From Escherichia coli (GTDB lineage Bacteria > Pseudomonadota > Gammaproteobacteria > Enterobacterales > Enterobacteriaceae): 64,000 bases of DNA. The stretch lies in NCBI RefSeq assembly GCF_017348835.2, contig NZ_CP071375.1. One strand, 5' to 3'. Of the stretch, positions 48,541-55,067 are shown piece after piece (position 1 is the stretch's first letter; every line of letters begins with the position of its first letter). Position numbers and translations under genes: made by a program. Below the pieces are notes generated by a model. The model was not told where the DNA came from. It saw only the letters and a program-made list of their open reading frames with translations, and did not search any database.

Positions 48541-48814
48541 GGGAGTTCTACCGCAGGGGCGGGGAATTCTCAGTGATATCCATCATCGCATCCAGTGCGC
48601 CCGGTTTATCCCCGCTGGCGCGGGGAACACTGCAGGTTTTTAGGGATAGTCACTGCAATACGCGGTTTATCCCCGCTGGCGCGGGGAACACGCAAGCCGC
48701 CCATTTGACGGTCACGCCAGTTACCGGTTTATCCCCGCTGGCGCGGGGAACACCCGGGATAGCCGATAACGATGGCGGCTCTGGGCGGTTTATCCCCGCT
48801 GGCGCGGGGAACAC
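48541..48814 (-). CRISPR. short type I-E CRISPR array: 4 intact 29-bp repeats plus one degenerate terminal repeat, 4 spacers
   Basis: CGGTTTATCCCCGCTGGCGCGGGGAACAC occurs at 48602-48630, 48663-48691, 48725-48753 and 48786-48814, with spacers of 32, 33 and 32 bp. A degenerate copy (18/29) lies at 48541-48569, leaving a 32-bp spacer at 48570-48601. Minus-strand repeat is GTGTTCCCCGCGCCAGCGGGGATAAACCG. Confidence 0.92.
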
Positions 48815-48910
48815 ACTAAGCATACATATCTGTTTTTAAACAAATTTATTCCACATCAACAATCTACCAACTAAATTCAAACATTTCCTTATTTTTAAAG
48901 AACACATAAC
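48815..48910 (-). promoter_or_regulatory. AT-rich CRISPR leader
   Basis: About 96 bp of AT-rich sequence between the last intact repeat and the cas2 remnant, the normal leader position for an E. coli I-E array. Confidence 0.55.
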
Positions 48911-49241
48911 CTATTGATTATCAACAGGAAGAAAAGAAACCAAACGTAACCCATCCAAATCCACCGGAATACGTCTGTTTTCTCCCCAGGTCTGAAATTC
49001 AAAACCCGACTCGGTATTGGTCGCCCAGGCCATCACCACATTTCCGCAACCAGCCAGTTGGGTAATTTGCTGCCAGATCATCTCCCGAATACGTTTTGAT
49101 GTATCACCAACATACACACCGGCACGCACTTCCAGTAACCGTCGTACTACGCCGCAGACTGGCACGTTCGCCGCGTTTCTCCTGCAATTCCTCATGCCAT
49201 TTGCGCAGCGTGGCTTTGTGCTCCTCTTTTACAATACTCAT
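48911..49241 (-). pseudogene. deletion remnant: cse2 5' end (about 33 codons) joined out of frame to the cas2 3' part
   Basis: An ATG at 49239-49241 overlaps the cse1 stop (ATGA) and opens a Cse2-like N-terminus ([31 protein letters not shown]...) that stops after about 45 codons. In another frame the sequence from about 49140 down to 48911 encodes a Cas2 C-terminal part ([12 protein letters not shown]...[12 protein letters not shown]). No cas7, cas5, cas6e or cas1 lies between them. Confidence 0.7.
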
Positions 49242-50800
49242 TCAGCAGCCTCCTGCTTTTTCTCCCTGGCGGCTTTAGCACTTTGCTTCTCCGCCGATGT
49301 TGTAAAATATTTCTTGCGCGCGGTCATGACGCGTTCCAAATCAACGGGCTCATAAGGATTGGTGAATACACGCTCGTCAAAATCCTGACGTGCGAATAAC
49401 CAAATTTCCTTTTGCCATTTGCCGAGTAATTCATCCGCATCCTGACCTTCTTCAATTTGGCGCACTAACCTCAGGAAGCGATGCTGAGTTTTGTTCCAGA
49501 AGTCGATATCCACAAAACTGAAATCACCCCTTGCACCTTTTGGATCGGAGAACCATGCTTCTTTCAATGCACTCCGTAACAGACTCAGAATCCGTGAAGC
49601 CGTTTGCGCAGCCAGCCGCAGCTTCGGTATCTGGCCTTCTTTTTTATTGAGCAATAGAGGGAAATGGTGTTCGTACCAACAGCGAACCTTCATATCTTCG
49701 AAATCATAACCAAATCCCCACAAGCCTATTTTTGTCTGCTTTAGATTGCTGGCATTGAAAAGCTTCACTACCTGTGCGGGGAGTTCAGTATTGTTTTTTG
49801 ATTTACCTTCCTCTATGAGGCCTAACCAGTCGCGCCAGATTAAACCACCTGGTTGTGGTTTAACTGAGTAAAACTCTCCTCCCTCTTTAAGCGGCATACG
49901 GTAAGGTGTTAGAGGATGCCTCCACATGACGTATTGCACCCCATTGTTTTTAAGTGCCATCAAGCTCAATAGAGCGCCGCTCTGACTACCGCAAATATCG
50001 CAGTTGCCAATTGAGGTTGTCTTAAAATCAATACGAATACGCCGAGGCATTCCCCAGTAGGCCTGAAGTTTATTGACTTGTTCATCGGTTATCACAGCAC
50101 CATCCAGTTCACTGGTACGCGTCGGTGCAAGCCAGGGAAAGACCAGGTCATCAAAGGTTTTTGGTAAAGGTAAATCGGCTTCATCCTGTGGCATTACGTT
50201 AAGCCACAGCTTGCGCCACAAAGGGGGTTGTGGATTGCCCTGATACTCCAGCAATTCTATAAGTGTGGTCAGCGGCCCCCCGCCACGTAACCCCGGATAG
50301 TAACCGCGTCCACCTTTGGGAGCATTCAGCTGGATTGAAAAAAGTGCTAAAGGCACACAATGCAGGCATATATGCTGAATTGTATCTCGCTTAATAAAAT
50401 GGTCTTTATTTCGTTCTTTTGTTTGTTTTCCTGGTATGTCAGGAAGAAGCGAAGCAATAGAACTAACCTTAACTCTTAATTCTTCGAAATCCTGCATAAA
50501 TGAAGGTGAATCTGGCCCGAACTGGAAAGCATGTTCTAATAACAGCAATGCTTCCCGTAGCTTTTCGGCTTCCAGTCCGTCTTCCCAGATATCATCCCAA
50601 CGACGATGATCTTTTGGCGCGAAGCTGGTTTGTAGTAACCCCAGCAAAAACTGCCAGGCCGCCCCCTGGAGATCTGCCCGCGGCGCAGCGATATCGACAA
50701 CATTTTCATCCGCCAGATCGACTGGCGCCAGTTTGCCTGTCGTTCCGTCTTTAAAACGAACGGGCAACCACGGGGTTGTCAGAAGTGAAAACGAGTTCAT
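49238..50800 (-). CDS. casA: Cascade large subunit Cse1/CasA (variant distinct from the K-12 allele)
   Basis: 520 aa from MNSFSLLTTPWLPVRFKDGTTGKLAPVDL, a Cse1-type N-terminus; sits between cas3 and the cse2 start with the usual ATGA overlap. The start could instead be the upstream Met at 50860. Confidence 0.7.
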   Translation of the reverse strand: MNSFSLLTTPWLPVRFKDGTTGKLAPVDLADENVVDIAAPRADLQGAAWQFLLGLLQTSFAPKDHRRWDDIWEDGLEAEKLREALLLLEHAFQFGPDSPSFMQDFEELRVKVSSIASLLPDIPGKQTKERNKDHFIKRDTIQHICLHCVPLALFSIQLNAPKGGRGYYPGLRGGGPLTTLIELLEYQGNPQPPLWRKLWLNVMPQDEADLPLPKTFDDLVFPWLAPTRTSELDGAVITDEQVNKLQAYWGMPRRIRIDFKTTSIGNCDICGSQSGALLSLMALKNNGVQYVMWRHPLTPYRMPLKEGGEFYSVKPQPGGLIWRDWLGLIEEGKSKNNTELPAQVVKLFNASNLKQTKIGLWGFGYDFEDMKVRCWYEHHFPLLLNKKEGQIPKLRLAAQTASRILSLLRSALKEAWFSDPKGARGDFSFVDIDFWNKTQHRFLRLVRQIEEGQDADELLGKWQKEIWLFARQDFDERVFTNPYEPVDLERVMTARKKYFTTSAEKQSAKAAREKKQEAAE

Positions 50801-53538: not shown

Positions 53539-53865
53539 ATGACTAAAAATACTCGTTTTTCCCCCGAAGTCCGTCAGCGGGCGATTCGTATGGTTCTGGA
53601 AAGTCAGGATGAATATGACTCACAGTGGGCGGCAATTTGTTCCATTGCCCCAAAGATTGGCTGTACGCCGGAGACTCTGCGTGTCTGGGTTCGCCAGCAT
53701 GAGCGGGATACCGGGAGTGGTGATGGTGGACTCACCACCGCTGAACGTCAGCGTCTGAAAGAGCTGGAACGTGAAAATCGTGAACTGCGCCGCAGTAACG
53801 ATATCCTTCGCCAGGCTTCCGCTTATTTTGCGAAGGCGGAGTTCGACCGCCTCTGGAAAAAATAA
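53539..53865 (+). CDS. IS3-family transposase OrfA (HTH / leucine zipper)
   Basis: 108-aa [25 protein letters not shown]... that I recognise as IS629/IS1203-type OrfA. Confidence 0.85.
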
Positions 53866-54752
53866 TGCCACTGCTGGATAAGCTGCGTGAGCAGTACGGG
53901 GTCGGACCGGTATGCAGCGAACTGCATATTGCCCCGTCAACGTATTACCATTGTCAGCAACAGCGACATCATCCGGATAAACGCAGTGCCCGTGCGCAGC
54001 ACGATGACTGGCTGAAGAAAGAGATACAGCGCGTATACGATGAAAATCACCAGGTATACGGTGTGCGTAAAGTCTGGCGTCAGTTGTTACGGGAAGGTAT
54101 CAGAGTGGCCAGATGCACTGTGGCACGTCTCATGGCAGTTATGGGACTTGCCGGTGTTCTCCGGGGTAAAAAGGTCCGCACTACCGTCAGCCGGAAAGCC
54201 GTTGCCGCATGCGACCGCGTAAACCGTCAGTTCGTGGCAGAACGTCCAGACCAGTTGTGGGTGGCTGATTTTACCTGGGTAAGCACATGGCAGGGCTTCG
54301 TTTATGTGGCGTTCATCATTGATGTGTTCGCCGGATACATCGTGGGATGGCAGGTCTCATCATCCATGGAAACAACATTCGTGCTGGATGCACTGGAGCA
54401 GGCGTTGTGGGCCCGTCGGCCGTCCGGCACAATCCATCACAGTGATAAAGGTTCTCAGTATGTATCGCTGGCCTACACGCAGCGGCTTAAGGAAGCCGGA
54501 TTACTGGCATCAACAGGGAGTACTGGCGACTCGTATGACAACGCGATGGCTGAGAGCATCAATGGTCTTTACAAAGCGGAGGTAATACACCGTAAGAGCT
54601 GGAAAAACCGGACAGAAGTGGAACTGGCCACACTAACGTGGGTGGACTGGTATAACAATCGACGATTGCTGGAAAGGCTGGGCCATATTCCTCCGGCAGA
54701 AGCAGAAAAAGCTTATTATGCTTCCATCGGAAATAATGATCTGGCAGCCTGA
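53865..54752 (+). CDS. IS3-family transposase OrfB (DDE integrase core)
   Basis: 295-aa ORF with an rve-type catalytic core (...HHSDKGSQY...YDNAMAESINGLYKAE...); its ATG overlaps the orfA stop (TAATG). Confidence 0.85.
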   Translation: MPLLDKLREQYGVGPVCSELHIAPSTYYHCQQQRHHPDKRSARAQHDDWLKKEIQRVYDENHQVYGVRKVWRQLLREGIRVARCTVARLMAVMGLAGVLRGKKVRTTVSRKAVAACDRVNRQFVAERPDQLWVADFTWVSTWQGFVYVAFIIDVFAGYIVGWQVSSSMETTFVLDALEQALWARRPSGTIHHSDKGSQYVSLAYTQRLKEAGLLASTGSTGDSYDNAMAESINGLYKAEVIHRKSWKNRTEVELATLTWVDWYNNRRLLERLGHIPPAEAEKAYYASIGNNDLAA

Positions 54753-55067
54753 GTTCACAGATAAAACACTCTCCAGGAAACCCGGGGCGGTTCAGTGATA
54801 GTCGTCACCCCCTTCTTTCTCGTCGCGTCGGGTTTTTCCCCAGAAATCAAAGAAAGTCACAATATTTTTATCCTTCAGTAAACTTAAAGGATATTTACGC
54901 ATATTTTAAAAATTATCTGTGATATATATCAGCCAATAAAACATTTATATTGTGAATAAATTTATGATTTTCATTTGAAATTCATAATAATAAATAGAGA
55001 CAATATATTCACATAAAAAATATAAATTTAAAAAAGGGTGCAGGAGACCAAACCATCACAATTCAAT

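Follow-up and report, generated by a model that had tools for sequence, protein, structure and literature searches.

Organization of the type I-E locus between iap and cysH

We analysed a type I-E CRISPR-Cas locus (short palindromic repeats, clustered and regularly interspaced, with associated cas genes) that lacks most of its cas genes and lies within a stretch of 64,000 nucleotides of Escherichia coli DNA (contig NZ_CP071375.1, RefSeq assembly GCF_017348835.2), referred to below as the window. The locus is situated between iap and cysH, with all cas and array parts on the minus strand, and extends from 48541, the outer end of the terminal repeat of the array, to the cas3 start codon at 54902. 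An earlier note, made from the sequence alone, had recognised an E. coli I-E locus between these two genes; this identification is borne out by the Cse1 profile, the repeats, the leader and the location, and the span 48541-54902 given in the note proved accurate. Read in ascending order of position, the locus consists of a short repeat array with its leader, the 3' part of cas2, the 5' part of cse2 (casB), a complete cse1 (casA), and a cas3 gene that is interrupted by an insertion sequence (IS).

Between positions 48400 and 55100 the window and the chromosome of E. coli PE164 (NZ_CP114128.1), a pig isolate from China, are 100% identical. The RefSeq annotation of the PE164 locus has, on the minus strand, a cas2e coding sequence (CDS), casB as a partial pseudogene, casA and cas3, a transposase of the IS3 family, a small partial fragment labelled 'hypothetical', and a gene for Hok/Gef. 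A second strain, the Australian pig isolate F2_81, has the same array, the same cse2-cas2 junction and the same casA, together with an uninterrupted cas3 of 899 amino acids; over 47001-53484 (6.5 kb) the two strains differ by one single-nucleotide polymorphism (SNP). The cas-E1 locus of strain EC974 (record L003), which is annotated cas2e-cas1e-cas6e-cas5e-cas7e-casB-casA-cas3, served as the intact reference, and all eight of its Cas proteins were compared with the whole window by tblastn. Genome counts were drawn from a collection of 5,426 complete genomes.

A 3,875-bp deletion joins cse2 to cas2

Relative to EC974, 3,875 bp (L003 5131-9005) are absent from the window. In blastn comparisons, window positions 47001-49140 aligned up to L003 position 5133, and 49133-53484 aligned from L003 position 9001 at 97.6% identity and without gaps. 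Base-by-base comparison together with these offsets placed the deletion junction at 49136-49137, at a 'TA' that is found in both parental sequences. The crossover falls inside an imperfect 8-bp microhomology CA[G/T]TA[G/A]CC (cas2 side, CAGTAGCC; casB side, CATTAACC) with an exact match of 2 bp. Deleted are cas2 codons 1-22, all of cas1e, cas6e, cas5e and cas7e, and casB from about codon 36. The cas2e remnant (48911-49137) comprises codons 23-97 and the stop codon, matches residues 23-97 of Cas2 at 100% identity in tblastn, and covers model positions 20-87 of 87 in TIGR01873. The 5' remnant of cse2/casB (49138-49241, about 35 codons) was matched by CasB residues 1-36 in tblastn and is called a partial pseudogene by the NCBI Prokaryotic Genome Annotation Pipeline (PGAP).

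For Cas1, Cas6e, Cas5e and Cas7e, tblastn gave no match better than E = 0.2 in the whole 64 kb. The earlier note had described the 5' end of cse2 as fused to the 3' part of cas2 and had listed cas7, cas5, cas6e and cas1 as missing. The fusion was confirmed by tblastn and by the base-by-base comparison, there is no homology to the four missing genes in 48911-49241 or in the rest of the window, and the alignment to EC974, an intact locus of the same variant, established both the deleted interval and its breakpoints. A 241-bp probe spanning the junction is contiguous in only two of the 5,426 genomes, PE164 and F2_81, and in typical intact genomes its two halves map to separate places.

Three further possibilities concerning the junction were considered and rejected. 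An in-frame Cse2-Cas2 fusion protein is ruled out, since 3,875 cannot be divided evenly by 3, which puts the two remnants out of frame; the casB frame ends at 49104, giving an open reading frame (ORF) of 45 amino acids (49104-49241). An IS-mediated deletion is ruled out as well, because microhomology is the only feature of the junction, with no IS sequence or inverted-repeat remnant there. Finally, a first blastn search had returned 88% identity on the cas2 side, which raised the possibility of a mosaic origin of the flanks. This value resulted from the alignment running into the array, and the leader with the adjoining cas2 remnant (48815-49132) shows no difference from the intact loci of EC974 and many O157:H7 strains (100% identity). 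As a side observation on annotation, PGAP presents the truncated cas2 remnant as an ordinary Cas2e CDS in both PE164 and F2_81.

cse1 is intact and cas3 is split by IS629

The cse1/casA gene (49238-50800) is intact and encodes a protein of 520 amino acids, which has the same protein accession in PE164 and F2_81. It matches the profile TIGR02547 over its full length (1-504 of 504, 554 bits) and is 98.7% identical to EC974 CasA over 520 amino acids. On the K-12-type model NF007247 it scored 88 bits against a cut-off of 576, and it is therefore not of the E2 variant. Taken together, the CasA profile scores, the L1-type leader and the adjacent hok-sok module assign the locus to the cas-E1 variant.

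The cas3 gene is split after codon 36. The 5' fragment (54795-54902) holds codons 1-36, including the native start codon (54902-54900); the body of the gene (50890-53484), which runs from codon 36/37 to codon 899 and the stop codon and contains HD motif II onward and the helicase, is cut off from the start codon and the promoter. The tblastn matches of Cas3 covered residues 1-36 and 36-899, and the domains TIGR01596 and TIGR01587 are present. Between the two parts lies an element of 1,310 bp on the plus strand (53485-54794), which over its full length is 99.5% identical to the element annotated IS629 in phage BP-4795 (IS3 family, IS3 group). It has terminal inverted repeats of 25 nt (88% identity), the reading frames orfA (53539-53865) and orfB (53865-54752), both matched by the IS3-family transposase model NF033516, and an ALIL frameshift pseudoknot (53820-53936, 120 bits). 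The element is bounded by a direct 3-bp target duplication, GTG, at 53482-53484 and 54795-54797. In-silico removal of the element and one GTG copy yielded an 899-residue Cas3 identical to that of F2_81, which has no IS629 at this site. The reading of cse1 as the sole intact cas gene, and of cas3 as split by an IS629-like element, was thus upheld by the full-length TIGR02547 match and by the identity and target duplication of the 1,310-bp element.

The first canonical in-frame cas3 start after the element is a GTG at 53457 (V46). H41, which in an alignment to structures pairs with the HD ligand H37 of Thermobifida fusca Cas3, belongs to the large fragment, and the GTG is located downstream of it, so that any restart product would lack H41. 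The cas3 frame continues without a stop into the left end of IS629 for about 40 codons (53458-53550). The PGAP cas3 CDS, which reaches 53550 inside the element and has a non-canonical start, is probably an annotation artefact and not a real fusion protein. A query containing the element matched 32 places in PE164 and 27 in F2_81, which indicates a heavy load of IS629-type elements in this pig-associated lineage.

A short array with an intact leader

The array (CRISPR-I, also CRISPR2.1; 48541-48814) contains four perfect 29-nt copies of the repeat GTGTTCCCCGCGCCAGCGGGGATAAACCG, at 48814-48786, 48753-48725, 48691-48663 and 48630-48602, and a degenerate terminal repeat (48569-48541) in which 18 of the 29 bases are conserved. 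Perfect 29-mers at a spacing of 61-62 nt do not arise by chance. The four spacers are S1 (48785-48754, 32 nt), S2 (48724-48692, 33 nt), S3 (48662-48631, 32 nt) and S4 (48601-48570, 32 nt). The leader (48815-48910), 96 nt from the cas2 stop codon to the first repeat, is intact, of the cas-E1 type (L1), and 100% identical to functional E1 leaders. A scan for promoters and terminators gave counts equal to those in shuffled sequence and was therefore uninformative. The repeat coordinates agree with the description of the array in the note as short, with four spacers. The same note had counted three independent lesions: the deletion and the IS insertion are real lesions of the cas operon, and the four-spacer array is not demonstrably a third.

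The spacers differ in their distribution. S4, at the trailer end, is present in 3,743 of the 5,426 genomes and is hence a conserved ancestral trailer spacer. S3 occurs also in two other arrays; in several other E. coli genomes, P2-family prophages carry a major capsid gene that matches it at all 32 nucleotides. Only PE164 and F2_81 have the leader-proximal S1 and S2, which implies that adaptation was still working after this lineage had split from its sequenced relatives. For S1, S2 and S4, only chance-level matches (E ~6) were found in the phage collection, and the only better matches in the plasmid collection were S4 itself in E. coli records, of which three of four were chromosome-sized.

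PGAP does not annotate the array as CRISPR in PE164 or F2_81 and places a 57-amino-acid 'hypothetical protein' inside it (48650-48823). A second orphan I-E array, CRISPR-II, with six repeats of GAGTTCCCCGCGCCAGCGGGGATAAACCG, is located outside the window between queE and ygcE (L004 15221-15555; PE164 1005220-1005554), and the adjoining yqcE is frameshifted in PE164. In the strains NCTC9041, EC13 and A27, cas-E1 genes lie within ~13 kb of ygcE/yqcE, which points to a large deletion, or a rearrangement, between the regions of CRISPR-I and CRISPR-II.

Search for a second set of cas genes

In 2,700 genomes the deleted interval was matched, in no case on a plasmid; the cas2/leader segment was matched in 2,732. 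About 1% of the genomes with the cas2/leader segment have none of the deleted interval; when partial losses are counted, ~4% (104/2,732) have no near-complete copy of the interval in a single place. We further used a chimeric query in which an anchor specific to PE164 (queE-CRISPR-II-ygcE-yqcE-ygcW) was joined to the deleted interval. This query matched two places in typical genomes and one place each, the anchor, in PE164 and F2_81. No E1-type cas7-cas1 copy was found elsewhere in the chromosome of either strain, the K-12-type E2 set not having been searched for directly. The site of type I-F systems, infA-serW-clpA, is empty in PE164, where infA, the tRNA-Ser gene and clpA lie within ~0.7 kb. 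The earlier note had made the relic status of the array conditional on the absence of cas genes elsewhere in the genome. For E1 copies in the two chromosomes and the plasmid collection, and for the I-F site, that absence was found.

Comparison with known and degraded I-E loci

The cas-E1 and cas-E2 variants and their module exchange, L1 leaders, the linkage to hok-sok, and arrangements of the locus based on IS186 and 'ISu' were described by Almendros et al. (2014, PMC3903273). The present locus resembles E. coli cas-E1 (arrangement A and its IS-modified derivatives, PMC3903273) in its iap-cysH site, 29-nt type-2 repeat, spacers of 32-33 nt and L1 leader. It also has the same order, cas3-cse1-...-cas2-leader-array, with the hok-sok module beside cas3, and its CasA and Cas3 are 97-99% identical to those of intact E1 loci. 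It differs from them in the loss of 3,875 bp between the 3' part of cse2 and the 5' part of cas2, in the IS629 within cas3, and in an IS481-family element that splits hok from sok.

Decay of the same kind has been reported for E. coli and Shigella I-E loci (PMC8148099). Examples are loci with IS186 inserted in cas3 and no cas gene but cas2 remaining, and loci with part of cas7/cse1 deleted and short residual arrays, of four spacers and one spacer; these were read as non-functional. Unlike those loci, the present one has its breakpoints at cse2 codon ~35 and cas2 codon 23, carries IS629 in place of IS186, and owes its deletion to something other than an IS. Among the complete genomes we found three further independent internal deletions of cas-E1: in PI12, in HH107/KL53/CFSAN051542, and in F829/cM2a, where KL53 and CFSAN051542 were grouped with HH107, and cM2a with F829, from the genome match table only. 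As at the present locus, cas7, cas5 and cas6e are gone in all three groups; cas3, casA, cas2 and the array are retained in them. Their breakpoints are independent: PI12 and F829 retain an intact casB, HH107 and F829 retain cas1, and none has the junction of PE164 and F2_81. This set is biased, as the query that retrieved it contained cas3 and casA. Deletion and IS-driven decay of E. coli I-E loci are thus already published; the allele described here is rare (2/5,426), and the phenomenon is ordinary.

The adjacent hok-sok module

The hok-sok module beside cas3 is interrupted, 4 nt upstream of the start codon of hok, by an IS481-family element of 1,083 bp (55252-56334; NF033577, 212 bits), which is flanked by a 6-bp target duplication, ATGTCT. 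The genes hok (55095-55247) and sok (Rfam RF01794, 56335-56484), both on the minus strand, are thereby parted. The element probably corresponds to the 'ISu' of Almendros et al. (PMC3903273). In PE164 the transposase ORF (476 amino acids) runs beyond the element; in F2_81 the copy is 6 nt longer and its right junction differs, and EC974 has no IS481-family element at hok-sok.

Discussion

The data very probably describe a dead, decaying type I-E locus of the cas-E1 variant that was struck by two independent mutations in a known order. The 3,875-bp deletion from cse2 codon ~35 to cas2 codon 23 came first, probably through illegitimate, microhomology-associated recombination that involved no IS. 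IS629 then transposed into cas3 codon 36 in the PE164 lineage only, leaving its 3-bp target duplication. The order follows from F2_81, which has the junction and no IS in cas3, so that the deletion must be older than the insertion. From the established I-E mechanism, a lack of Cas6e would prevent pre-CRISPR RNA processing, the loss of Cas7, Cas5 and Cse2 would leave no Cascade around Cse1, and spacer acquisition would fail for want of Cas1 and a complete Cas2. Transposition in addition cut cas3 off from the promoter, the start codon and the first 36 codons of the gene. Judged by its gene content, the locus would be null for all three stages of immunity, which supports the view of the earlier note that it cannot function and that the array is a relic. 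The intact leader and both arrays would be orphans; they may still be transcribed, at most into RNA that stays unprocessed. Intactness of cse1, and of cas3 apart from the insertion, reflects recency and not retained function, given that only one SNP separates the two strains over 6.5 kb.

Several points weigh against this interpretation. The loss of function is deduced from which genes are present. For the deletion, replication slippage and illegitimate recombination are both candidate mechanisms, for which the only clue is a very short stretch of microhomology. The open cas3 frame extends into the IS and might in principle give rise to a fusion or restart product. Lastly, our direct searches were aimed at E1 genes, which leaves aside a second set of the K-12 type (cas-E2) at another site; such a set is known only as an alternative at this very locus (PMC3903273).

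We also weighed whether the locus might be complete in the real genome, with the junction created by assembly, or whether the deletion might have been selected and not be neutral. An assembly artefact would presuppose repeated flanks, and we found nothing in its support: the flanking sequences are single-copy in PE164 and F2_81, the deleted interval is unmatched anywhere in either chromosome, and the junction is base-identical in these two complete genomes, which were sequenced independently and come from different continents. The junction is therefore contiguous in the real genome, and the probability that it is an artefact is close to nil. Selection could have favoured the deletion as an escape from autoimmunity caused by a self-targeting spacer. 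Loss of cas genes is a known route of such escape, S3 matches a capsid gene of P2-family prophages in other strains, and not long before the loss the lineage had gained S1 and S2, which are private to it. Against this, each of the four spacers matches the PE164 and F2_81 chromosomes at one place per record only, and at an exact match of at least 28 nt neither genome contains a P2-type protospacer. Silencing of I-E by H-NS in E. coli (PMC8148099) makes autoimmunity less likely still. We consider such an escape improbable, although of the alternatives to neutral decay discussed here it is the least so.

Partial function could have survived in two ways, either through Cse1 (with Cas3, in the state seen in F2_81) acting without Cascade, or through the leader and arrays being used in trans by I-E cas genes that are located elsewhere or arrive on a mobile element. 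The intact cse1, the F2_81 cas3 that remained intact after the deletion, the 100% conservation of the leader, and the three other independent deletions that keep cas3 and casA intact could all be read in this way. With a single SNP in 6.5 kb, however, there has been no time for decay, so that intactness is silent on selection, and the IS629 insertion in the PE164 cas3 runs contrary to selection for that gene. The other deletions came from a query biased towards loci that keep both genes, the searches of the chromosome and the plasmids brought up no further E1 cas copy, and the I-F site is empty; I-F proteins would in any case not use I-E repeats. Retained partial function is accordingly very unlikely. 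Marginally less credence still is due to the idea that the four independent deletion alleles which keep cse1 and cas3 reflect selection for a Cascade-independent Cse1/Cas3 activity, or a deletion hotspot from cse2 to cas1, as opposed to ascertainment bias and recency.

A locus killed by deletion and then hit by IS629 remains by far the best account, and its import should not be overstated. It provides a clean and datable example of the death of an E. coli I-E system, by a microhomology deletion followed by IS629, with little consequence beyond bookkeeping. It flags several RefSeq artefacts, namely the missed array, the ORF called inside it, the Cas2e CDS on a remnant, and the cas3 CDS running into the IS. 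The junction, together with the private spacers S1 and S2, could mark the lineage of this pig-associated clone. The locus also lends support to what has long been held of I-E immunity, namely that E. coli can do without it.

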